Shown here piece by piece: positions 15,525 through 45,591 of a stretch of 64,000 nt of DNA. The notes under the pieces were generated by a model that had not been told where the DNA came from, did no database searches, and saw only the letters and a program-made list of their open reading frames with translations. Within the stretch, counting starts at the first letter, position 1. Each line of letters begins with the position of its first letter. Origin of the DNA: Heptranchias perlo (taxonomy: Eukaryota); contig NW_027139217.1 in NCBI RefSeq assembly GCF_035084215.1, positions 248,001 through 312,000 on the forward strand. The letters are read 5' to 3'. The translations under genes were made by a program, and so were the position numbers.

Positions 15525-18500
15525 CCCCCGGGGAGACCCGGCCAATGCCCAAGTGATGATCGCCCTGGTGGAGCGACAACTCGCTGACGAGCTTTGGTCA
15601 GATCTCCGACGTTCCCCAGGCTGTGTAACCCTGGGCGACCCCCGAGTCCGAAGAACGGGATCGAATTTCCAGCCGATAATAAAATCAACCAGGGAGCGGA
15701 GGGAGGATAAAGCAAGAGGCCGGAGGGAGGAGGAGCCCAGAGCTTTAGGAGGGGACCAGACCCTATTCCCTCTGCTTCTCCACCCCCAGTGATGGAGCCA
15801 GGGCCTGGGACAGAGGGAAGATCCTCCGGGCTGCCTCCCAGGAGAGCACGGGCTCAATTTCGAGGGACTCAATCTGGATCTTTCAGACTTCCAACAGGAG
15901 CAGATAAATGATGCAGTCCTCCAAATCATAAAACAAGAGGTAGTAGTGAGAAGTGGGCACCCCACTGAGGGTAAAACAAAAGGTGCGGGGCCTTATTATC
16001 CGGTAAAGAATGACCTTCTATACAGGGAGAGTGCGGGGCAGCAGCAGGAAGTTGACCAGTTGCTGGTGCCACGGACACAGAGGCAGATAGTCCTTGACTT
16101 GGCCACAAGCAACTATTCAGAGCTCACCTGGGGATAGAGCAAACTCGGGAGGGGCTGTTGAGGTGGGTCTTGTGGCCAGGGGTGGATGAAGTGATCCGGG
16201 GGTTCTGTCCCTCCTGTCCACAGTGTCAGCTGTGTGGGCCCAGGCCTCACTATCACGCTCCATTAATCCCTCTCCCCGGAATTGAGGGGCCTTTCGAAAG
16301 GATCGGGATGGACCAGTGGGCCCGCTGGAGGGGTCAGCGCGAGGTCACCAATATATGTTGGGAGTTGTTGCCTGTTCCAGGCCCGATCCTGAGGCGATTC
16401 CACCGAGGATCACGGCCCCTAAAACCATAGCGGGCGGGTCAGTGAGAGCGTTCCCCGGGGTAGGGATCCCAAAGGACCAGGGACTCCCTCTGTGTCCACA
16501 CTGATGAAGGGCCTCTGTCCCCTCCTCCATATTAAAAGTCTGAGGCCCTCCGTGGATCAACCCTCAAACCGAGGGCCGTGTGGAGAGGGTCAGTGGGACC
16601 CGCGAGTATGTTCAAAAAGGCCCGGCATAAAGATGGGTCAAATCGGGATCCTTCACTGCCCCGTCTCAGGCCTGCAGTCGGGGAGGGAGGGGCCTCGGTC
16701 GGGGAGGGAGGGGCCTCGGTCAGGGAGGGAGGGGCCTCGGTCGGGGAGGGAGGGGCCTCGGTCAGGGAGGGAGGGGCCTCGGTCAGGGAGGGAGGGGCCT
16801 CGGTCGGGGAGGGAGGGGCCTCGGTCGGGGAGGGAGGGGCCTCGGTCAGGGAGGGAGGGGCCTCGGTCGGGGAGGGAGGGGCCTCGGTCGGGGAGGGAGG
16901 GGCCTCGGTCGGGGAGGGAGGGGCCTCGGTCGGGGAGGGAGGGGCCTCGGTCGGGGAGGGAGGGGCCTCGGTCGGGGAGGGGCCTCGGGGGAAGGAGGGG
17001 CCTCGGTCGGGGAGGGAGGGGCCTCGGTCGGGGAGGTGCCTCGGGGGAGGGAGGGGCCTCGGTCGGGGAGGGAGGGGCCTCGGTCGGGGAGGGAGGGGCC
17101 TCGGTCGGGGAGGGAGGGGCCTCGGTCGGGAGGGAGGGGCCTCGGTCGGGGAGGGCGGGGCCTCGGTCGGGGAGGGAGGGGCCTCGGTCGGGGAGGGAGG
17201 GGCTTCGGTCAGGGAGGGAGGGGCCTCGGTCGGTCGGGGAGGGCGGAGCCTCGGTCGGGGAGGGAGGGGCCTCGGTCAGGGAGGGAGGGGCCTCGGTCGG
17301 TCGGGGAGGGAGGGGCCTCGGTCAGGGAGGGAGGGGCCTCGGTCGGGGAGGGAGGGGCCTCGGTCGGGAGGGAGGGGCCTCGGTCGGGGAGGGAGGGGCC
17401 TCGGTCGGGGAGGGAGGGGCCTCGGTCGGGAGGGAGGGGCCTCGGTCGGGGAGGGCGGGGCCTCGGTCGGGGAGGGAGGGGCCTCTGTCAGGGAGGGAGG
17501 GGCCTCGGTCGGGGAGGGAGGGGCCTCGGTCAGGGAGGGAGGGGCCTCGGTCGGTCGGGGAGGGAGGGGCCTCGGTCGGTCGGGGAGGGAGGGGCCTCGG
17601 TCGGGGAGGGAGGGGCCTCGGTCGGGGAGGGAGGGGCCTCGGTCGGGGAGGGAGGGGCCTCGGTCGGTCGGGGAGGGAGGGGCCTCGGTCGGGGAGGGAG
17701 GGGCCTCGGTCGGTCGGGGAGGGAGGGGCCTCGGTCGGGGAGGGAGGGGCCTCGGTCAGGGAGGGCGGGGCCTCGGTCGGGGAGGGCGGGGCCTCGGTCG
17801 GGGAGGGAGGGGCCTCGGTCGGGGAGGGAGGGGCCTCGGTCGGGGAGGGAGGGGCCTCGGTCGGGGAGGGAGGGGCCTCGGGCGGGGAGGGAGGGGCCTC
17901 GGTCGGGGAGGGAGGGGCCTCGGTCGGGGAGGGAGGGGCCTCGGGCGGGGAGGGAGGGGCCTCGGTCGGGGAGGGAGGGGCCTCGGTCGGGGAGGGAGGG
18001 GCCTCGGGCGGGGAGGGAGGGGCCTCGGTCGGGGAGGGAGGGGCCTCGGTCGGGGAGGGGCCTCGGGCGGGGAGGGAGGGGCCTCGGTCCTCCAATAATA
18101 TTATTGAGCACAGAGTGAAGATGGGGCGCGGATTGAGGCGGTTCCCCCCATAGTGAGGGCTCATTTAGAGAGGGTGCAGGAAGAGCAGAGAGCCCAGTGT
18201 AAGAGAGGCTGCAGTCAGGAGGTTCCGACCAGGAGACCGAGTTACGGTCCTCGTTCCCACACCTGAAACAAGCTCTTTGCAGGGTGGCAGGGACTTTAGG
18301 AGGTTCTAGAGGCTGTGGGCCCAGTGAACTATAAGGTCAGGCAACCTCAGAGAAGGAAGCCTGACCAGAAAGACCATGTGCCCCTCCTGAAGCCATGGAG
18401 AGAGAGAGGCCCTCGCAGTGATGGAGAAAGCACTAGGGGGGCCCTGGCTCCAAGGTACAAAGCCCAGTTCACCTCTCTAGTGAGCTGCCTGAGGATCAGT

Positions 18501-20030
18501 GCAGGCAGGCTCAGCACCTGGGAGATGGAACCTGCAATGTATTCACATCTGGGCCTGGGAGGACGGGGGCCATCTGCTCTCACCTGGTGACACCACCAGG
18601 AGTGACAACAAAGGTCAGACCGGACCGAATCCCAGAAGCCAAACGGAGGGAGGTTCGCCAGGAGATTCCGAGGGTGTTGATCTTCGGGGTGATTGAAGAA
18701 TCACGGTGAACGGAGCAGCCCCATTGTGTTGGTTCTGAATCCCGATGGGAATTGGCGATTCTGAAATGACTTTCGGAAACTGAATGAGGATTGAAATCCG
18801 ATGCTTTCCCGATGCCCCGGGGGGATGAGTTGATTGAGAGATTGGCGAAGGCCCCTTTGATCTTACCCCCTTCGATCTGACCAAGGGGTGCTGGCAGATC
18901 CCTTTAACAGAGGCTGCAAAAGGAAACCCGTGTTTCGGGGTTCCCGAGGGGCTCTCCCATTCACCGTCATGGCATTTGGATTCCATGGGGGCCCAGTCAT
19001 CTTCCAAAGGCTCATGGACCAAGTGTTGAGACCCCCATACCCGGGGTGCAGCCTCATATCTGGATGATGCCATTATTTATAGTACAGACTGGTGATCCCA
19101 TTTACCTGGAGTAGAGGCTGGATTACACAGCCTAAGAAAGATTGGGCTCACGGCAAACCCGGCCAAGGGCCACCTGGTGTTGTCGGAGGCCGACTACCGA
19201 GGGTGGACTGTAGGAGGAGGGGTGGTGAAGTCTCAGGTAAATAGAGTTGAACCTATAAAAGCCTGGCCCTGACCGAGGAATAAGCAAGTCGGGGCTTTCT
19301 TGGGCATCGTTGGTTACTCCTGCCGCTTTATTCCTGCCTTTCTCCCCGAGCCGCGCCCCCCACTTAATGAGCGGAGTAAAGCAGAGGCACTGAACCTTGT
19401 ACGGTGGGACCCTGAGGCGGAGACTGCTTTCAGGGACCTGAACCAAACACTGTGAATGATCCTGAGCTCATGGTCCCAGACTTTAGTCCAAAATTTGTCT
19501 TGCAAACCGCTGCCTCCGAGGTGGGTTTGGGGGCCGTCCTCTCTCAAATGGTGAAGGGGGAGGAAATCCTGTGCTCGACCTGAACAGAAAGCTGTTGCCC
19601 AGGGGGCAGCGACACACTACGGCAGAGAAGGAGTGCCCACCAATTAAATGGGCGGTAGAAACCCTTAAAACACCACCTGTTGGGGTACCAGCTTCTCCTC
19701 GTGACCAATCACGTGCCCCTCAAATGGATGTGGTCCAACAGTGAGAAAAATGCCCGGGTTACCCGGTGGATTTCGTCACTCCAGCCCGATTGTTTCGAGG
19801 TGGAACACCGGGCGGGAGTGGCACACGGTAACTCCGATGCCCTCTCCCGGGAGTATTGCCTCGCGGAGCGAGCAGCTGGAGCCGAGGGGTCTATGATGGG
19901 GGGGGAGGATGTGTAAGGGAGGGCCCTGATCCCCAAATAAGGGAGTGGCCTTTTAAGGAGACCTCCCCTTTAAGAGGAAGGGTGTGGTCCTTTTAATGGG
20001 AACACCACCACCCGCACGTTCCCCTCCAAA
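15525..20030 (+). mobile_element. Decayed Gmr1-like Ty3/gypsy LTR retrotransposon (INT-RT-RNH order)
   Basis: Integrase (WPG...CPSCPQC...PFERIGMD; GPVNYKV...LLKPW) precedes RT (YLDD at 19057-19068) and RNase H (ASEVGLGAVLSQ...HGNSDALSR). Polypurine tract ~19895-19909, then TG at 19912. Confidence 0.88.
16677..18088. repeat. 21-bp G-rich minisatellite inside the Gmr1-like integrase (copy B 62162-63131)
   Basis: Unit ggggagggaggggcctcggtc. Confidence 0.95.
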
Positions 20031-22601: not shown

Positions 22602-22650
22602 ATGATTGGACTGATAGTTCTGGTCGTTCTGTGTGGAGGGGTCTCTGCAG
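22602..22650 (+). CDS. MHC class I exon 1, signal peptide MIGLIVLVVLCGGVSA
   Basis: ATG at 22602 (gcaATGa), 16-aa hydrophobic peptide ending VSA, donor G|gtgagt at 22651, phase 1. Confidence 0.9.
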
Positions 22651-23217
22651 GTGAGTAATGGGGTCTGAGAGGGGCTCAGTGCCAGGCTGGGTATTGGGGC
22701 ATTAACCCTCGGTCAGTGGGTAATGGGGTCTGAGAGGGGCTCAGTGCCAGGCTGGGTATTGGGGCATTAACCCTCGGTCAGTGGGTAATGGGGTCTGAGA
22801 GGGGCTCAGTGCCAGGCTGGGTATTGGGACATTAACCCTCGGTCAGTGGGTAATGGGGTCTGAGAGGGGCTCAGTGCCAGGCTGGGTATTGGGGCATTAA
22901 CCCTCGGTCAGTGGGTAATGGGGTCTGAGAGGGGCTCAGTGCCAGGCTGGGTATTGGGGCATTAACCCTCGGTCAGTGGGTAATGGGGTCTGAGAGGGGC
23001 TCAGTGCCAGGCTGGGTATTGGGGCATTAACCCTCGGTCAGTGAGTAATGGGGTCTGAGAGGGGCTCAGTGCCAGGCTGGGTATTGGGGCATTAACCCTC
23101 GGTCAGTGGGTAATGGGGTCTGAGAGGGGCTCAGTGCCAGGCTGGGTATTGGGGCATTAACCCTCGGTCAGTGGGTAATGGGGTCTGAGAGGGGCTCAGT
23201 GCCAGGCTGGGTATTGG
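22651..23217. repeat. 65-bp minisatellite starting exactly at the intron 1 donor, ~8.7 units
   Basis: Unit gtg(a/g)gtaatggggtctgagaggggctcagtgccaggctgggtattggggcattaaccctcggtca. Confidence 0.97.
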
Positions 23218-27717: not shown

Positions 27718-27978
27718 GCTCTCACTCTCTCCGGTATTTTCTGACCGCAATGACCCCGATCCCTGGTCTGCCGCAGTTTGTTGCTGTCGGGTATGTGGAC
27801 GAGGCCCAGTTTGTGATGTACGACAGCGAGCGGAGGGAGTTGATCCCACGGCTGTGGTGGATGGAGGAGAGGGAGGGGCCCGAGAACTGGGAGCGGAAGA
27901 AACAGCTGGTGCGAGGCGAGGAACAGTGGATGAAGGATTATATTCAGATCCTCCTGACCCGGACCAACCAGTCGGTCG
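27718..27978 (+). CDS. MHC class I exon 2, alpha1 domain
   Basis: Acceptor tttcag|, 261 nt, GSHSLRYFLTAMTPIPGLPQFVAVGYVDEAQFVMYDS...EGPENWER...LTRTNQSV, donor G|gtgagt. Confidence 0.97.
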
Positions 27979-28019
27979 GTGAGTTCACTCCCTCCCAACG
28001 CACTCGGGCTCTTCCTGCG

Positions 28020-28530
28020 GAGTCAGGGGGCGGAGAGCGGGGTCAGGGAGCGGGGAGCGGGGTCAGGGAGCGGGGAGCGGGGTCAGGGAGCGGGGAGCGG
28101 GGTCAGGGAGCGGGGAGCGGGGTCAGGGAGCGTGTCGGGGAGCAGGGTCGGGGCGGGGAGCGGGGTCAGGGGTCGTGGTCGGGGAGCGGGGTCGGGGCGG
28201 GGTCAGGGGTCAGGGAGCTGGGGCGGGGAGATGGGTCGGGGAGTGGGGTCGGGGTGGGGAGCGGCGTCAGGGGGCGGGGAGTGGGGTCAGGGGGCATGGA
28301 GTGGGGTCAGGGAGTGAGGTCAGGGGCAGGGAGCGGGGTCAGGGAGCGGGGTCAGGGGGCGGGTAGTGGGTCAGGGAGCGAGGTCAGGGTGCAGGGAGCG
28401 AGGTCAGGGGGCAGGGAGCGGGGTCAGGGGGCGGGGAGTGGGGTCAGGGGGCATGGAGCGGGGTCAGGGAGCGAGGTCAGGGGGCAGGGAGCGGGGTCAG
28501 GGGGCAGGGAGCGGGGTCAGGGGGCGGGGC
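28020..28530. repeat. G-rich degenerate repeat
   Basis: gggagcggggtca motifs. Confidence 0.9.
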
Positions 28531-28632
28531 CAGGGGTTGACATGCGATATTCTGACGGTCATGGACTCGGACCAACCAGTCGGGCGGTGAGTCCTCGGCC
28601 TCAAACCGCACTCGGGCTGATCCCGGGGTCAG
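28531..28632 (+). pseudogene. Remnant 3' end of a second, diverged alpha1 exon with its donor and intron start
   Basis: QGLTCDILTVM(+1 nt)TRTNQSG|gtgagt...cgcactcgggct parallels QWMKDYIQILLTRTNQSV|gtgagt...cgcactcgggct of the main exon. Confidence 0.85.
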
Positions 28633-28692
28633 GAGTGGGCAGGGCTGCTCCCCCTGGAAGTGAGGAAGTTCCACCCCCTCCCCCACTGTGTG

Positions 28693-31363: not shown

Positions 31364-31912
31364 CCCGTGTCTCTCTATTCCCCCTGTGTCTCTCTATTCC
31401 CCCTGTGTCTCTCTATTCCCCCCCGTGTCTCTCTATTCCCCCCCCGTGTCTCTCTATTCCCCCCCCGTGTCTCTCTATTCCCCCCCCGTGTCTCTCTATT
31501 CCCCCCCCGTGTCTCTCTATTCCCCCCCGTGTCTCTCTATTCCCCCCCCGTGTCTCTCTATTCCCCCCCCCCCGTGTCTCTCTATTCCCCCCCCCGTGTC
31601 TCTCTATTCCCCCCCCCCGTGTCTCTCTATTCCCCCCCCGTGTCTCTCTATTCCCCCCCCCGTGTCTCTCTATTCCCCCCCCCGTGTCTCTCTGTTCCCC
31701 CCCGTGTCTCTCTGTTCCCCCCCGTGTCTCTCTGTTCCCCCCCGTGTCTCTCTATTCCCCCCGTGTCTCTCTATTCCCCCCCCGTGTCTCTCTATTCCCC
31801 CCCCGTGTCTCTCTATTCCCCCCCCGTGTCTCTCTATTCCCCCCCCGTGTCTCTCTATTCCCCCCCCCCGTGTCTCTCTATTCCCCCCCGTGTCTCTCTA
31901 TTCCCCCACCCC
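31364..31912. repeat. C-rich ~21-26-bp minisatellite
   Basis: Unit gtgtctctctatt(c)n. Confidence 0.93.
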
Positions 31913-32830: not shown

Positions 32831-33427
32831 CCAACTCAGATCGGCAGATTGGTGAGGTCTGACCTGCAGATTGGAGGATGTGGGATTTAGTAATGTGCAA
32901 CCTTTATTCAATGTTTTAACATAACTCAACCGTTTGTAAACATAGGGAGGGGACCTGTATCTGTGTTTTACGTGTGCGATGTCTGATCTCCGTTCAGACT
33001 CTGTCCGAACCCGTATCTTATATTTTGCAAATATCAGAGTCCCTCAAACGTTGAGCAGCCCAGTTGTTGCTCATTAAAAATTCCACAGTTCCCATCATCA
33101 TCGTGTTTCACGATATTGCAGCACAGATTCACTTCACCATTGACTTCCTCCACTTCCTGCAGACACACTGCACCTTCCCTTTAAGTGGTGCGAGCCACTC
33201 GTGATATCTGGGCCCCTGCTGGTGAGCAGCCACTCACAGTGCAGGGAGTGCTGGCTGGACGCAGCAATCAGGTAAATCACCAGGCAGCACGAATGTTACG
33301 TTCTTCCCACATCTCACCGACCGGGCACGGGTTCATCACGACCCGTGGAAGTGGTTTTCTCGGGCGGACCGAAAACACACCTCTTACTATAAGTTCAGGA
33401 ACGATCGGGACACTCGCTGGGAGCACG

Positions 33428-34893
33428 GGGGGTCCTTTAAATACACAGATTGTGGTCCAGGGGGTCCTTTAAATATATAGATTGAGGTTCGGGGGTCCTT
33501 TAAATACACTGATCGGGGTCCGGGGGTCCTTTAAATACACTGATCGGGGTCCGGGGGGTCCTTTAAATACACTGATCGGGGTCCGGGGGGTCCTTTAAAT
33601 ACACTGATCGGGGTTCGGGGGGTCCTTTAAATACACTGATCGGGGTCCGGGGGGGTCCTTTAAATACACAGATCGGGGTCCGGGGGTCCTTTAAATACAC
33701 TGATCGGGGTCCGGGGATCCTTTAAATACACAGATCGGGGTCCGGGGGTCCTTTAAATACACTGATCGTGGTCCGGGGGTCCTTTAAATACACTGATCGG
33801 GGTCCGGGGGATCCTTTAAATACACTGATCGGGGTCCGGGGGTCCTTTAAATACACAGATCGTGGTCCGGGGATCCTTTAAATACACTGATCGGGGTCCG
33901 GGGATCCTTTAAATACACTGATCGTGGTCCGGGGATCCTTTAAATACACTGATCGGGGTCCAGGGATCCTTTAAATACACTGATCGGGGTCCGGGGGGTC
34001 CTTTAAATACACTGATCGGGGTCCGGGGATCCTTTAAATACATTGATCGGGGTCCGGGGGTCCTTTAAATACACTGATCGGGGTCCGGGGGTCCTTTAAA
34101 TACACTGATCGGGGTCCGGGGGTCCTTTAAATACACTGATCGAGGTCCGGGGGGTCCTTTAAATACACTGATCGTGGTCCGGGGGGTCCTTTAAATACAC
34201 TTATCGGGGTCTGGGGGTCCTTTAAATACATTGATCGAGGTCCGGGGGTCCTTTAAATACATTGATCGGTGTCCAGGGGGTCCTTTAAATACACTGATCG
34301 GGGTCCGGGGGTCCTTTGAATACACTGATCGGGGTCCGGGGGTCCTTTAAATACACTGATCGAGGTCCGGGGGATCCTTTAAATACACTGATCGGGGTCC
34401 AGGGGGTCCTTTAAATGCACTGATCGGGGTCCGGGGGATCCTTTAAATACACTGATCGGGGTCCAGGGGTCCTTTAAATACACTGATCGGGGTCCGGGGG
34501 TCCTTTAAATAAACTGATCGGGGTCCGGGGGTCCTTTAAATACACTGATCGGGGTCCAGGGGTCCTTTAAATACACTGATCGGGGTCCGGGGGTCCTTTA
34601 AATACACTGATCGGGGTCCGGGGGGTCCTTTAAATACACTGATCGGGGTCCGGGGGTCCTTCAAATAAACTGATCGAGGTCCGGGGGTCCTTTAAATACA
34701 TTGATCGGTGTCCAGGGGGTCCTTTAAATACACTGATCAGGGTCCGGGGGTCCTTTAAATACACTGATCGGGGTCCGGGGGATCCTTTAAATACACTGAT
34801 CGGAGTCCGGGGGTCCTTTAAATACACTGATCGGGGTCCGGGGATCCTTTAAATACACTGGTTGGGGTCCGGGGGGTCCTTTAAATACACTGA
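33428..34893. repeat. ~31-33-bp minisatellite upstream of alpha2
   Basis: Unit tcctttaaatacactgatcggggtcc(g)n. Confidence 0.95.
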
Positions 34894-35037
34894 TTGTCTC
34901 CGTAACCCATCTGCCCACTGCCCCCCTCCCCCCACCCCCGGCTTCCCAGCTGATTTCCGACTGTGAGCTGGGTGGTGATGGGATGGTGGACGGGGTCTCG
35001 GACTGGGTCTGACTGACCCCCTGTGTTTGATTGACAG

Positions 35038-35310
35038 GAATCCACATGATCCAGCAGATGACCGGCTGTGATCTGGGGGATGATGGGATCACCAGTGGGT
35101 TCTTTCAGTACGCCTGGGACGGGGAGGATTTCATCAACTTCGACAGGGATCAGATGGTGTGGGTAACACCGGTACAGTGGGGAGAGATCACCAAGAACAA
35201 GTGAGACCAGGACACGCCCCGGAACCAAGGGGTGAAGGGATACCTGGAGGGGGAGTGCATCGAGTGGCTGAGGAAATACCTCGAGTACGGAGAGAGGGAA
35301 CTGAGGGCCG
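35038..35310 (+). pseudogene. MHC class I exon 3, alpha2 domain with premature stop
   Basis: Acceptor gacag|, 273 nt, GIHMIQQMTGCDLGDDGITSGFFQYAWDGEDFINFDRDQMVWVTPVQWGEITKNK*DQDTPRNQGVKGYLEGECIEWLRKYLEYGERELRA, donor G|gtgagt. Confidence 0.95.
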
Positions 35311-35740
35311 GTGAGTGAGGGGGGAGTGAGAGTCGGTGAGTGAGGGGGGAGTGAGAGTCGGTGAGTGAGGGGGGGAGTGAGAGTCGGTGAGTGAGGGGGG
35401 AGTGAGAGTAGGTGAGTGAGGGGGGGAGTGAGAGTCGGTGAGTGAAGGGGGGGACTGAGAGTCGGTGAGTGAGGGGGGAGTGAGAGTCGGTGAGTGAAGG
35501 GGGGGACTGAGAGTCGGTGAGTGAAGGGGGACTGAGAGTCGGGGAGTGAGGGGAGGAGTGAGATTCGGTGAGTGAGGGGGGGGAGTGAGAGTCGGTGAGT
35601 GAGGGGGGGGAGTGAGAGTCGGTGAGTGAGGGTGGGAGTGAGAGTCAGTGAGTGAGGGGGGGACTGAGAGTCGGTGAGTGAGGGGGGAGTGAGAGTCGGT
35701 GAGTGAGGGGGGAGTGAGAGTCGGTGAGTGAGGGGGGGAC
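35311..35740. repeat. ~24-27-bp minisatellite starting at the alpha2 donor
   Basis: Unit gtgagtga(g)nagtgagagtcg. Confidence 0.95.
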
Positions 35741-36067: not shown

Positions 36068-36343
36068 TTACTCCCCAAGTGTTTCTTTCTGTGGACAAGG
36101 CCTCAGACTCTAAACCGGCCCAACTCTCCTGCCTGGTCACGGGGTTTTACCCTCGAGATATCGAACTCACCCTCCTGAGAAATGGACGGCCGATCTCAGA
36201 CACTGATTCCACTGGCATCCTGCCCAACCACGATGGCACCTACCAGATCAAGAGATGGGTTGAGATCGGGCCCGAGGACGGAGCCACCTACTCCTGTCAG
36301 GTGGATCACAGCAGCAAAGCAGGAGTGGAGACCCGAGACTGGG
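36068..36343 (+). CDS. MHC class I exon 4, alpha3 (Ig C1-set) domain
   Basis: Acceptor ctctcag|, 276 nt, LSCLVTGFYPRDI...GILPNHDGTYQ...YSCQVDHSS, donor G|gtaaga. Confidence 0.97.
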
Positions 36344-37120: not shown

Positions 37121-37257
37121 ATGGGACGTTCCGAGTGACTCCGGGATCTTCAGAGGGACCGAATCTGGGTTTAATTGTTGGAATTGTTCTTGCTGCCATC
37201 GCCCTGATTGCTCTCGTCATTGGTGCCGTTGTCTGGAAGAAGAGAGGTAGGAAATGA
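37121..37257 (+). CDS. MHC class I exon 5, connecting peptide and transmembrane segment
   Basis: Pyrimidine tract then cacag|; DGTFRVTPGSSEGPNLGLIVGIVLAAIALIALVIGAVVWKKR. Possible donor G|gtagga at 37247, or read-through GRK-TGA ending 37257. Confidence 0.92.
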
Positions 37258-39145: not shown

Positions 39146-39443
39146 TGTAGGGAGCTGATCACTCCTTGATTCTGGGTGCAGTACAGTCCGAACAAAGGTT
39201 GTGTGTATTTGGCGACTGAATGATGGAGTAAATTTAGTTACTGAGTATTGTTAACATCTTTAATCGAAATTGGGATTGTGTATTGAGTATTTATTTTTGT
39301 TGTAATAAAAGGAACAAAAAGGGAAGTACTCTTTGTGTCTGTGACTAAGTTTGTCTAATTTTATCGACGTTTATCGAAGTTTCTCTCTCCACTCTGTACC
39401 TTGTTTAAGCCGAGCCTCACAGGGTTAATGAGAAAATGCTTCA
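39146..39443 (+). repeat. 5' LTR
   Basis: tgtagggagctgatcactcc...agggttaatgagaaaatgcttca; AATAAA at 39304; homologous to 45592-45889. Confidence 0.8.
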
Positions 39444-40683
39444 GGTTTCAGTGCGTGACGTGGATCCTGAGTTTAAAAGGAGTGTAAACTACCGCAGACA
39501 GTGAGCTCTGTCTGAGCTCAGTGCTGTTATGGCCGATATGGAAGGACAAATATCTGCCCATATAGCTGAGAAACTTCCGAAGTGGGAGGAAGAGTTTCAG
39601 GGCATGGAAAGCCAGGCAGACACGATGAGGGCGTGTCAGGGGAGATTTCATCAATTAATTCAGGACAAGGAACTTAAAGAGAAACAAGAGAAAGCCGTAT
39701 GGTTCTTAGCGATGGGCATTCAGTCCAAAACAAGGACGGAGCGGCAGGAGAAGAAGGTTGTTTTTCGGACTGGAGGGAGGTGGAGCACCGAAACAACGGG
39801 CGATACACGGGCCAATTTAGCGCCCAGAGGGTTTTGAAAAAGAACTGGGAATGAAGGAAGAGATTTTTAAACAGGAGCAGAGAGACAAGGAAAAGGCTTT
39901 GGACAAAGAGGGGAAGAATAAAGAGATGGTGGAGAGACGAGTCCAGTCTCTCGAAAACCACGTTGAGTATTTCCAGACAAAGGTTCTCAGTGAGGACAGA
40001 GAACTTGAGAGATTTAAAGCTCTGAATAATAATCAGGAACTCTTGTGTTTGAAATTGCGAAGAGAACATGATGATTTCTGAGCAACAGTGAGAAGCCAGT
40101 TTGAGTTGGTTAAACAGGTTGGGGAGGGAGATGAAGTGAGTCGCACTCACTGTCAGCGAGAGACACTAAAGTTCCCGGCGGTGTTGAGAGTAAAAGGGGG
40201 GATAGTGTGAACGATAGTGCCGCCTGGTGAAGAGGGGGAAGGAAGGGAGTTGGATGAGGGAGACTGGGAAGATTTGGCAGGGAAGGCAGCACAGTCCCAT
40301 AGTGGGGATTGTGAGCCCAGACTCAGAGAGCTGCCCCCACCTATGGAGCCAGTGATTCAGGTAAAGAGAGAGGACGCAGACAGAGACCCAGGAGAGGGAG
40401 TGAGTCACTATGTAGGACTGGATAGTCAGCAGGTCCTTCAGGAACGAGCCAAACAAGTCCCCGAGTTTGACAGGAAAGGGGACGTGATGAGACATTGTGT
40501 AGAAGGGGAACAAACGGCTGTGCCCAGCGGCATGGATGATGGGGGGAAGTGAGATTGTTACCGTGGACCTTGGGGGGGCTGTTTGGAGCGCTGACAGCAA
40601 ACCGTAAAAATGGTTCCGGGGATTGGCGACAAACACAGGAAGCTGGATTAACAGCGATCGGGTTTAATAGAAGGGAACACACC

Positions 40684-41210
40684 GAGGGTCTAAAAATACC
40701 ATCAGGGGCCCACTGAGGGTCTAAAAATACCATCAGGGGCCCACTGAGGGTCTAAAAATACCATCAGGGGCCCACTGAGGGTCTAAAAATACCATCAGGG
40801 GCCCACTGAGAGTCTAAAAATACCATCAGGGGCCCACTGAGCGTCTAAAAATACCATCAGGGGCCCACTGAGAGTCTAAAAATACCATCAGGGGCCCACT
40901 GAGGGTCTAAAAATACCATCAGGGGCCCACTGAGGGTCTAAAAATACCATCAGGGGCCCACTGAGGGTCTAAAAATACCATCAGGGGCCCACTGAGAGTC
41001 TAAAAATACCATCAGGGGCCCACTGAGGGTCTAAAAATACCATCAGGGGCCCACTGAGGGTCTAAAAATACCATCAGGGGCCCACTGAGGGTCTAAAAAT
41101 ACCATCAGGGGCCCACTGAGGGTCTAAAAATACCATCAGGGGCCCACTGAGAGTCTAAAAATACCATCAGGGGCCCACTGAGGGTCTAAAAATACCATCA
41201 GGGGCCCAGT
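40684..41210. repeat. 31-bp minisatellite in ERV gag, ~17 units
   Basis: Unit gagggtctaaaaataccatcaggggcccact. Confidence 0.96.
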
Positions 41211-41814
41211 GAATATCGCGAGGTGTTTGCCAATCGATTATAACGACTCTATGATCGGGTGTACGGTCCAGGATTGAACGGTGGGTCTTCGGGCAGCGTC
41301 CCACAGTGAGCCACTGGTTTAGAAGCCTGAACGGTCAGGCCCGACCCTATTTGCCGTCTGCCCTTGTGGGATTCGATCCCAGAGGAGGCGAACCAGAGTG
41401 AGGCGTGGGTCCTTCAGAGAATGACCCGAACCTGGGAAAACCGGAAAGTGGGTGGTGAGCCCGGGGTAAGTCTGGTCACAGCTCGGAAAAATGAGGGACC
41501 AGGGACTCAGAAACAGGGTCAGGATAAGAAAGGGAGCGGGAAACCAACAGAAAAACCCATAAATACAAGTGTCAGGGTGAGAGGGAGCAGTGGGATGAAA
41601 TGTTCCAACTGTAGGGAGACGGGACACCTTGCTCGGGACTGTGGGCAGGACTGGAAGGGAGATCAGGCTGGTGAGGAAAGAGGCCGGGCAGGATTGGACC
41701 CTGACTTGGCAGAGTTTGGGAGAGAGCTCGATAACACATTCCATGGGGCGATTCCGAGTGTCCCCGGCACCAGGATCACTGATGGAGGGAGACAGGAGAG
41801 GAGACAAAGAGACG

Positions 41815-42566
41815 GGGTCCGGGCACAGTGACCCGGGGGGAGGGGGGTCACAGTGACCCGGGGGAGGGGGGGGTCACAGTGACCCGGGGGAGGGGGGGGG
41901 TCACAGTGACCCGAGGGAGGGGGGGGTCACAGTGACCCGGGGGGGGGGGGTCACAGTGACCCGGGGGGGGGGTCACAGTGAACCGGGGGGGAGGGTCCGG
42001 TCACAGTGACCCGGGGGGGAGGGTCCGGTCACCGTGACCCGGGGGAGGGGAGAGTCACAGTGAACCGGGGGGGGGGGTCACAGTGACCCGGGGGGGGTCA
42101 CAGTGACCGGGGGTGGGGGGGGTCACGGTGACCCGGGGGGGGAATGTCCGGTCACAGTCACCCGGGGGGGGGTCACAGTCACCCGGGGGAGGGGGGGGGT
42201 CACAGTGACCCGGGGGAGGGGAGGGTCCAATCACAGTGACCGGGGGGAGGGGAGGGTCCGATCACAGTGACCGGGGGGAGGGGAGGGACACAGTGACCCG
42301 GGGGAGGAGAGGGTCCGGTCACAGTGACCCGGGGGAGGGGGGGGTCACAGTGACCCGGGGGAGGGGAGGGTCCAATCACAGTGAACGGGGGGAGGGGAGG
42401 GTCCGGTCACAGTGACCCGGGGGAGGGGAGGGTCACAGTGACCCGGGGGAGGGGAGGGTCCAATCACAGTGACCGGGGGGAGGGGAGGTTCCGGTCACAG
42501 TGACCCGGGGGAGGGGAGGGTCCGGTCACAGTGACCCGGGGGAGGGGAGGGTCACAGTGACCCCGG
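41815..42566. repeat. G-rich minisatellite in the ERV with a hairpin core
   Basis: ggtcacagtgacc followed by variable G runs. Confidence 0.93.
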
Positions 42567-44039
42567 GCGGGGTGGGGGGAGGATGGGAAAAGCAGAGCCC
42601 GAGGGAAAGGACAAACACTGCCGGAGTTCCCCAGGCTCCCTCAGTAAAGGTGGTCCCATCTTTCCTGGGTTCGGGTGGGTATTGGAGGGACTGGACAGCA
42701 GACTCTGTGACTCTCAGCACTCCCTTATTTGCCTTGCTAAAGACGGATGCGCCCTGGGACTGGACGCCTGCCTGCACAGAGGCAGTGGGGAAACTAAAAG
42801 CTGCTCTTCACACAGCTCCCGTCTTACAACAGCCACCCCAGAAGGCCCTTCCTCACTCCAAGTGGCAGTTTCCGAGTTTGCTCTGCCAGCTGGATTGCTG
42901 CAGGAGACACCGGGGAAGTTGTGTCCTGTAGCGTGTGTCTCCTGGGTCCTAAGGCCGGTCCAGGTTAATTATTCAGCAGGTGAAGGGCACGTCTCAGCCA
43001 CATTCTGGACCGGTGCAGCTTTTCACTGACATCATTGGCCGAGCATTTGTTCACATCTCACTCCCCGACCGAGTTATTGTTCGATGGGAGATTGAAAGAT
43101 GGGTCAGTCTCAATAACTGACCAGTGAGGTGGACCTTCCTCCTCCAGGGTAGAGATACCGTGGACAAACACACCAGAGACTGACCCGAACTGACCCGGAA
43201 AGCTGCTGTATCAGGGTCGGCCCCACCGTTATAAGGTAACCACCGATCTGGGGAATGGACCGATTCAAGGCCCAGAAAATTCCCAACTCTACTCCAGTGT
43301 TTGTTGGCGGCTCCTGACGAGCAAAGAGAGGGGTTACACCTAACTGGCTGTGGGATATATTTCCACAACAGGGAAAGGAGATCTCCCGACTGTGACCATC
43401 CCCGCTCTGGGCTCAAACAGCTGAATCAGCAGTGATTATCGAGATGATGACCCAGATGAGCCAGGTTCAGCTCCCAGCCGCCATCGATTCAGATTCCCGG
43501 ACGGAATCCTCACCCATCTGGGAAAAGAGAGGTTTTCCATCAGCGGATGGGAAGCTTTTCCCATCGGCCCCCCCCACGACTTCAGTCCGTTTCCTCACAC
43601 ATTAAATCGTACGCAGGGCAAATTACATCACAGAAAGTTAAAGCTCACACCAGGAACGGGAGTGGGTGGGAAGGAAATGAGAGGGCAGAGCAGTTGGTCA
43701 AAGAAGGGGGAGAGAATGGAATTCAGTGGGACCCTCGAACGAGAGCTTCCCCAGCAGAGATTGTGACCTTCCTGAAAGATCCTCTGACTCTGGGGGATTT
43801 GAAGGAGACGCAGGCTGAGGAGATCCAAATCCAGCAAGTGATTAATTCACTGGAGGAGGGAATCTCCCCTCCGAGCCCGGGTGAAGAGAGAAAGGGATTA
43901 ACAGTTAAGGCTGGTTTATTATTCCGGGTCGGAGCATGGGTCGGACTGGAGGGCTTAAGGAATCACTTCCTTTATCAGGCACACCAGGCACCTACAGTGT
44001 GACATTCTGGTCCAGTCACAACTCTCACCCCATTAAAGG

Positions 44040-44295
44040 GGCAGTCTGGTGATCTGGCAGTCTGGTGATCTGGCAGTCTGGTGATCTGCCGGTCTGGTGA
44101 TCTGGCAGTCTGGTGATCTGGCAGTCTGTTGATCTGGCAGTCTGTTGATCTGGCAGTCCGGTGATCTGCCGGTCTGGTGATCTGGCGGTCTGGTGATCTG
44201 GCGGTCTGGTGATCTGGCGGTCTGGTGATCTGGCAGTCTGGTGATCTGGTGGTCTGGTGATCTGGCAGTCTGGTGATCTGACAGTCCGGTGATCC
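44040..44295. repeat. 16-bp minisatellite in the ERV integrase region
   Basis: Unit tctggtgatctggcag. Confidence 0.95.
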
Positions 44296-45591
44296 ATTGA
44301 TTCAGACCAAGGAAGTCATTTCACCGGGGAGGAGATGCAGCACGCTGGGGGTTAAAATGTACGTTGATGGAAAAGTGCGGCCTATGGAATGGGACAGATC
44401 GGCCAACAGGTTCTGGTCAAGACTTATGACCAGACCGGCCCATTCTCTGCGACCTATCAAGGCCCAGACCCATAGTGGACAAGGCCAGCCCATCGCTGTA
44501 CAAGGTGATGATGGGCAAAAGGAAAAGTGGTTCCATGTTAACCAGCGAAAAGCATTTCCCAACCAGAATCCGCCCCCAGCAGGTTCAATAAATGAAATCC
44601 CATTGGACAATATCCCATGGGGGGAACGACCCCGGTGTTGGGACGATGAGCCCTTCCCCCGAGCTCCATCGTCCTCACCAGAGAGAAGGGGCCGACAGCA
44701 ATTGAGAGGGAGACGACTATCTCTCCCTGCCCAGGATGTCATTAAAGGGGAAGCGATCCTGGGGACAACCCTTCTGAGGTTCCGAAGGGAAAGAGAGGGA
44801 GGATCAGGGATTAACAAAGAACAGCCATTACTGCCCGTGTTTTCTCTTTCTCCTGATGTGTAGACTGTTAAAGACCAAGTCTCCTGGGGTGGCTGTTCAA
44901 CATGAAACTATCAACACTTCTCAATATCTCCATCTGGGTCTACGGATACACAACGTCCTAAGTCAGACCACTTCTGCCCACTGGGACTCTCCACAACTGA
45001 TACACCCCCCAAATGTTTGGAGATCATGAAGGGTGGAGATTGTTGATAACAATGGACAATATCCGTGGGTCAGGATCACATCGATGTTGTTATTGATAAT
45101 TCAGATTGGACTGGTGATTGTTGCACTCGGGATTTTTAAATCGACCTGACACAGACAGAGACAAATAGTCCCTGCTCGACAACAAGTGGAAATGGAACGG
45201 TGATATGGCTTCCACCAATGATCATCCTTTGTCTAATGTCCTGTTAGATACTGCACAAGTGTGAGTATCCGTTCGTTCAGACTGTACGAGCACTCGACAA
45301 TCAGCGATGATCAGATCACTCATTAAAAGTGGATCTGGATCAATCTGATCCACTCGAGGAGGGAGTTTCGAGATTGATGAATAAAAGGACTGAAGGGAAA
45401 TGTTGACGGTCAGCGTGCTGGTGCATCATGGGATATTTGACCATGTTGTGCTCCACTGTGTTGAGCGAGAGACATTCTTTGTAAATTTAACAGTGACCTT
45501 GTCTTCGAGCGATCCTGTGGAAACTTAATGTGGGACAGAAACCGCCTACGAGGGAGAAGAGCTCAGACGTGTGTGGGGGAACCTCCAGAGA

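Follow-up and report, generated by a model that had tools for sequence, protein, structure and literature searches.

An intron of an MHC class I gene in this shark genome carries what reads as the end of a second alpha1 exon, which raises the question of whether the remnant preserves the breakpoint of a hybrid gene or has another origin. The window, that is, the whole stretch of 64 kb analysed here (C1050:248001-312000), holds a single MHC class I heavy-chain gene with leader, alpha1, alpha2, alpha3 and transmembrane (TM) exons joined by phase-1 GT-AG junctions. Its features, including the alpha1 remnant (stub 1) and a second remnant further downstream (stub 2), are as follows:

22602..22650, + strand: leader exon, spliced onto alpha1 in contigs of three of four runs
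27718..27978, + strand: functional alpha1 exon (PF00129, E 4.6e-22; best PDB match 6LUP, nurse shark class I, E 1.1e-28)
28017..28535, + strand: G-rich degenerate minisatellite, adjoining stub 1 and varying in length between copies
28531..28586, + strand: stub 1, the 3' end (56 nt) of another, diverged alpha1 exon, carrying one inserted nucleotide
28587..28640, + strand: donor of stub 1 and homologous intron start (about 50 nt, ending at about 28640)
31364..31907, + strand: 21-bp minisatellite, 2.8-3.3 kb downstream of stub 1
33407..34894, + strand: UAA-type intron-2 segment, a 20-nt unique flank plus a 31-bp minisatellite, about 90% identical to UAA-like paralogs
34946..34983, + strand: stub 2, a decayed copy of alpha2 nt 13-50, with a UAA-type Glu codon
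35004..35037, + strand: acceptor region of the true alpha2 exon, the same sequence as in the five UAA-like paralogs
35038..35310, + strand: alpha2 exon, mostly UAA-like, with UBA-like codons 8 and 11
36068..36343, + strand: alpha3 exon, 99.6-100% identical across 11 loci
37121..37246, + strand: TM exon, with no cytoplasmic exon after it in the window copy

A genome DNA search with the alpha1 exon returned 11 loci. Five are near-identical tandem copies on C1050 (98-99% identical to the query), the window gene among them, which we denote R; one is a sister gene at C1050:382 kb (M382, 89%); and five are UAA-like genes (M51, C1161, C1654, C1057 and C1438; 78-81%), which we denote U. The five-fold amplification of R is recent, with an intron divergence of 0.5%. 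The window copy is interrupted by a TGA at 35202-35204 (W147), and the reading frame is open in the other four R copies. A cytoplasmic exon follows the TM exon in only two of the five copies; in the three that lack it, read-through would end a few residues past the TM segment. Classical class Ia (UAA) genes are marked by high allelic polymorphism and tight linkage to TAP/PSMB. Of the eight peptide-anchoring residues given in the available text of PMC4364491 (Y7, Y59, R84, T143, K146, W147, Y159 and Y171), the intact copy at C1050:317 kb has seven, with N instead of Y at residue 59 of the functional alpha1.

The surroundings of the array are themselves rearranged. Two inverted class I genes bracket the five forward copies, one UAA-like (C1050:51 kb) and one of the R alpha1 lineage (C1050:382 kb), and their flanks are 96-100% identical. 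At C1050:162834-200966, a 38-kb array of about 1750 copies of a 22-bp unit breaks the tandem gene units at the site expected for a sixth copy. The amplified unit of ~44 kb also includes decayed retroelement-like sequence (window positions 39400-44600), in which gag-, RT- and RNase H-like pieces were recognised by eye and which is interrupted by minisatellites, with a further decayed piece at about 18100-19900. Elsewhere in the assembly, an alpha3 exon of the same type with a deletion (C20, L128:7720-7974; 79% DNA identity) has no alpha1 or alpha2 within the 50 kb examined and is likely an orphan fragment, and about 20 more distant class I alpha1 or alpha2 exons on C1101, C1105, C1097, C1080, C1772, C1486, C1406 and C1424, many with equal scores, represent other multicopy class Ib lineages.

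Stub 1 translates as QGLTCDILTVM, followed by one extra base and TRTNQSG, and its GTGAGT donor lies at 28587-28592, 608 nt past the true alpha1 donor (27979). A genome search with stub 1 matched the alpha1 ends of other class I genes (E 8.6e-11 to 2.8e-7), and alignment of alpha1 exons to intron 2 gave scores of 58.5 and 50, which none of 200 dinucleotide shuffles reached in either case (maxima 34 and 36). The resemblance of stub 1 to alpha1 is not due to chance. The preceding G-rich minisatellite arose by expansion of a seed at the start of the intron, and because array and exon are both G-rich, the left edge of the stub is fuzzy by about 10 nt. An earlier preliminary description, made from the sequence of the window, had reported an alpha1 end of ~56 nt with a 1-nt insertion some 600 bp past the donor, with its own GTGAGT donor and homologous intron start and joined to the G-rich repeat, and our analysis bears it out on each of these points. 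As to whether other units carry the remnant, a matter raised in the same description, stub 1 is present in all five tandem R copies on C1050 (176/176 identical) and absent from intron 2 in all six other paralogs.

Several comparisons bear on the ancestry of stub 1. Over the exon end and intron start it matches its own R alpha1 at 76/106 positions, M382 at 67/106 and the five U genes at 62/94 to 74/106, and R alpha1 and M382 match each other at 86/108. Over the exon part alone the values are 39/56 to its own alpha1, 29/56 to M382 and 35-39/56 to UAA-like genes, and the widest distances among the UAA-like genes themselves are 35-51/56. A maximum-likelihood tree placed stub 1 on the branch between R plus M382 and U (97/97, 99/97), a placement that rests on 107 columns only. 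Among the several AU tests run on this alignment, sisterhood with its own R alpha1 was rejected (p-AU 0.039), as was sisterhood with each of four of the five U genes (p-AU 0.010-0.023); pairings with M382 (0.080) and with M51 (0.075) were not rejected.

The signals within stub 1 point to both lineages. Its UAA-like marks are a Gly codon and the donor context, the first 17 intron nucleotides being UAA-type (16-17/17), and its peptide profile score is -7.3, where UAA-like sequences range from -33 to 0.1 and UBA-like ones from 2.9 to 26. Intron nucleotides 18-52, on the other hand, match the R lineage at 24-25/33 and UAA-like genes at only 14-19/33. Of its states at informative sites, 14 are common with the R lineage and 10 with UAA-like genes, and only two sites are common to stub 1 and its own R alpha1 alone. 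We considered a mosaic structure within the stub itself and set it aside, the clustering of these sites being not significant (runs test, p 0.18). An intact source gene for stub 1 was not found by genome search of the assembly, and the tree therefore cannot name the source paralog; a more distant source was also considered and rejected, other alpha1 exons on C1101 and C1080 being just 25-35% identical to the sister alpha1. Since stub 1 is equidistant from its own alpha1 and from UAA-like paralogs, its origin would lie in a third, vanished alpha1. On these alignments, stub 1 was copied neither recently from the resident alpha1 nor from any gene now in the assembly, in agreement with the earlier proposal that the remnant comes from a diverged alpha1 and is not a recently decayed duplicate of the gene's own exon.

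We then examined whether the domains of the gene share one ancestry. Synonymous distances (pS) between R and the UAA-like paralogs are 0.24-0.31 in alpha1, 0.07-0.10 in alpha2, where 90-93% of synonymous sites are alike, and about 0 in alpha3; the contrast between alpha1 and alpha2 is significant by Fisher's test for four of five paralogs (p<0.02; 0.076 for the fifth), although these comparisons are non-independent. The internal branch is likewise 0.25 for alpha1 and 0.026 for alpha2. In protein trees of hand-chosen shark sequences (55 of 116 plus 20 database matches, most non-chondrichthyans and near-duplicates being left out), the alpha1 sequences of R and M382 branch off as sister to a trans-order clade with 26 members (94/94; 97/90 in another tree) that spans galeomorph sharks, a sawshark and a ray. 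Among its members are AAC60347 from nurse shark and AAC60348 from horn shark, which we take to be the UBA-lineage clones of Bartl 1997, and we use the clade name UBA on the same assumption. The alpha2 of R and M382 nests instead among the U genes of its own genome (99/93), apart from the 26-member clade (100/98), and the alpha3 of R falls in another group than the UBA-like clade (99/99). For domains this short, AU tests on protein alignments rejected the alternatives neither for alpha1 (0.084, 0.12) nor for alpha2 (0.258, 0.197), the last value being that for forcing alpha2 into the UBA-like clade.

At the residue level, alpha2 codons 8 and 11 encode T and D in both R and M382. T is found in 12/24 UBA-like sequences and 0/24 others, and D in 21/24 versus 0/24, whereas alpha2 positions 50, 51 and 54 are U-type. 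Several alpha1 residues typical of the clade (E45, Q46, V29 and V49) are missing in R. These trees and distances suggest that the functional alpha1 belongs to a UBA-like lineage and that the gene carrying the stubs traces back to a non-classical lineage of UBA-like type, and by the same comparisons the gene is a domain mosaic in the sense of discordant alpha1 and alpha2 ancestry. We discarded an argument for intron orthology from a LINE segment 92% alike with M382, as 35 of 40 scored genome hits were unrelated copies at 92-93%. Another gene of the family, C1438 (422-15811), has an alpha1 and alpha2 like those of other U genes and an alpha3 of another type (73% DNA identity) 14 kb downstream; judged from its exons, it is a second case of domain discordance, across intron 3.

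Does stub 1 then mark the point at which the lineages switch? Among the matches listed, R, M382 and U are 93-100% identical over non-repeat stretches of the promoter and of intron 1, and the 61 nt ending with the leader exon are identical (61/61) across all seven class I genes on C1050. The leader therefore does not come from a different gene than alpha3; with both gene ends homogenised, alpha1 is an island. Furthermore, lineage-specific intron sequence continues for 3.3 kb past stub 1, as far as the end of the 21-bp array at 31907, and all 50 exact genome matches of the two-unit pattern of this array lie in intron 2 of R or M382. Unique UAA-type intron sequence was not found between stub 1 and 33407, where a segment begins whose flank (19/20) and 31-bp array match M51 and C1654. 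The UBA-like codons 8 and 11, followed by U-type positions 50, 51 and 54, indicate that the coding switch seemingly lies inside alpha2, and M382 is equally mosaic without stub 1. We thus found no single lineage switch inside intron 2 at the remnant. The lineage switch seems to lie inside alpha2, and stub 1 is probably not the point at which it occurred.

The hybrid gene of the preliminary description consequently survives in part. Its mosaic nature stands, by the distances of the separate domains and the near-identity of alpha3; its origin of the leader in another gene than alpha3 does not. The discordance for which it had proposed separate domain trees as a check appears in the alpha1 and alpha2 protein trees and is not matched by an incongruent alpha2 DNA topology, in which R groups with M382 weakly (59/41), the same split as in alpha1, so that only depth differs. 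Its central idea, a preserved breakpoint between leader plus alpha1 and alpha2 plus alpha3 plus TM, is not supported, in view of the 21-bp array, the late start of UAA-type intron sequence, codons 8 and 11, and M382.

Intron 2 holds a second remnant, which the preliminary description had missed. Stub 2 lies 54 nt ahead of the true alpha2 exon, shows 31-32/38 identity to alpha2 nt 13-50 (E 1.5e-5) and was not matched by any of 200 shuffles in each of three tests. It is present in all five R copies and was found nowhere else in a genome search. Its similarity is 32/38 to four of the five UAA-like genes versus 30-31/38 to the R lineage, and it comes after the UAA-type intron segment. In the other four R copies, it is preceded by a C-rich tract and reads CAG/G, acceptor-like and out of phase with alpha1. 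The two stubs stand in intron 2 in their native order, alpha1 end and then alpha2 start, which rules out one simple tandem duplication.

The transcript evidence comes from four runs of one sample; none is recorded as RNA, and they count as transcript-derived solely on account of the exon joins in their contigs. Contigs of all four runs splice alpha1 (27978) to alpha2 (35038), bypassing both stubs; leader-alpha1 joins occur in contigs of three runs and alpha2-alpha3 joins in all four. No join at the AG of stub 2 was seen in the contigs, and unspliced contigs cover stub 2 in two of the four runs. Contigs are blank over 27987-28030 in the four runs, and such a blank carries no evidential weight. 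In the four R copies whose database gene models were examined, the models contain no stub residues. That stub 1 is kept because it serves as an alternative donor or regulates splicing could be argued from its intact GTGAGT and from 160 nt that are invariant across five copies, against a 0.5% pairwise difference in the next 2.6 kb, but this invariance is weak evidence because only about 0.8 differences per pair are expected. Moreover, the donor offsets of 608, 640 and 648 nt place stub 1 out of frame in two copies, the three in-frame copies hit a stop at codon 228, none of the five (0/5) gives an open in-frame read-through, and the contig ends listed at the alpha1 boundary all use the first donor for the join to alpha2. 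We consider a splicing role highly unlikely; stub 1 is best read, from these frames and joins, as silent, non-coding debris that alters no protein.

We somewhat favor an origin of both stubs as scars of old out-of-register recombination with a class I paralog, in which stub 1 is not the lineage switch point. The starting point would be a UBA-like non-classical gene among a local UAA-like family, in which repeated gene conversion by UAA-like neighbors would have replaced the leader, intron 1, alpha3, TM and most of alpha2. A tract of a lost paralog, from alpha1 end to alpha2 start, would have been joined at G-rich microhomologies, out of register, in the exchange-prone intron 2, either as one pasted tract or by two successive unequal exchanges. 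Both exon edges would have been left as non-coding stubs without function, and the later five-fold amplification of the unit would have spread them passively. The two stubs may share a common origin in one event. A narrower version, which we hold only tentatively, takes them as the two ends of one mis-registered conversion tract from a classical-type gene, the ancient UBA lineage surviving in this species only as an alpha1 module on a classical-type alpha2 and shared alpha3, expressed from a recently amplified array. Against a UAA-type tract stands the lineage-specific 21-bp array between the stubs, which a pure tract of that kind leaves unexplained unless M382 later lost both stubs.

Two other explanations compete with recombination with a lost paralog. 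The stubs could stem from two old duplications in tandem, each of a local exon-intron boundary (alpha1 end and donor; acceptor and alpha2 start), in the ancestor of R and M382, whose copies then decayed and were lost by M382. The family readily duplicates splice junctions, as in the intron-3 minisatellite (35302-35739), which begins inside alpha2 and repeats the exon end and GTGAGT donor 17 times as an array of decoy donors, and in the intron-1 array (22651-23217), which begins at the donor; the closeness of stub 1 intron nucleotides 18-52 to the R lineage and the lineage-specific 21-bp array that comes after stub 1 also fit. Only two sites, however, are shared by stub 1 and its own alpha1 alone, and the rejection of their sisterhood requires that any local duplication predate the split of R and M382; in addition, the exon part of stub 1 is far from M382 (29/56) and scores as UAA-like, and the sequence ahead of stub 2 aligns poorly to the acceptor. 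Local duplication is possible, though we doubt it. A single unequal crossover at 28531, joining leader and alpha1 to the alpha1 end, intron 2, alpha2, alpha3 and TM of a diverged UAA-like paralog, appears improbable. It would agree with the UAA-like exon part and donor context of stub 1, with the overlap between the distances of stub 1 to UAA-like genes and their own widest distances, and with the mostly UAA-like alpha2 and shared alpha3, and recombination between the two intron starts could have removed the stub from M382 if that gene derives from an R-like one. But the leader and intron 1 are homogenised as much as alpha3, unique UAA-type intron sequence is missing from stub 1 to 33407, alpha2 codons 8 and 11 are UBA-like, intron nucleotides 18-52 of the stub are far less similar to UAA-like genes than the alpha2 synonymous sites are, and stub 2 goes unexplained.

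The locus is a new instance of known MHC processes, namely conversion and homogenisation. Shuffling of alpha1 and alpha2 through intron 2, together with species-specific homogenisation of alpha3, is described for class I genes of the teleost U lineage (trout and salmon UBA, zebrafish, medaka) in the available text of PMC6523485 and PMC4364491. The shark gene resembles these accounts in its old alpha1 lineage on a younger alpha2, its within-species alpha3 homogenisation and its long, repeat-rich intron 2. It differs in that the teleost cases, in that same text, are in-register exchanges among classical alleles or loci with no mention of exon stubs, whereas in the shark alpha1 is seemingly of non-classical lineage, the intron retains exon edges and the switch seemingly lies inside alpha2. 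As in the concerted evolution of mammalian class Ib and class Ia genes described for HLA-E/H2-Qa1 in the available part of PMC1403747, lineage-specific groove residues persist alongside homogenisation, within the species, of alpha3 and of parts of alpha1-alpha2. Compared with the mammalian case as given there, homogenisation in the shark is more complete (alpha3 99.6-100%, leader 100%) and covers most of alpha2.

With respect to the lineage that we take to be elasmobranch UBA, the gene is similarly multicopy, and its alpha1 is placed, in trees whose alternatives the AU tests did not reject, as sister to the 26-protein clade with AAC60347 and AAC60348; it differs in that most of alpha2 and all of alpha3 fall outside that clade and that E45, Q46, V29 and V49 are missing. 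The accessible portions of PMC10751288 and PMC12562908 describe elasmobranch UBA as a multicopy, MHC-linked, UAA-derived class Ib lineage, its shark cluster flanked by c4 and rxrb (PMC10751288), and the latter, a review, cites Bartl 1997 for UBA. No paper on exon remnants in class I intron 2 or on this locus was found in our literature search, which is weak evidence, most subscription papers lying outside it.

Evidence for domain shuffling and conversion in class I genes normally takes the form of trees that disagree. If recombination with a lost paralog is the true origin of the stubs, these intron-borne exon edges are physical traces of how an exchange was joined, out of register and at G-rich microhomology. 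Sharks are the oldest vertebrate group with an MHC, and if the two stubs are the ends of one tract, the locus is a fossil of peptide-groove exon shuffling in a shark, with a groove that is half non-classical and half classical. For shark immunogeneticists, the lineage mosaicism may matter more than the stub: all UBA-like alpha1 exons found in the assembly sit on a UAA-like alpha2 and a shared alpha3, an arrangement that would mislead lineage assignment from whole proteins.
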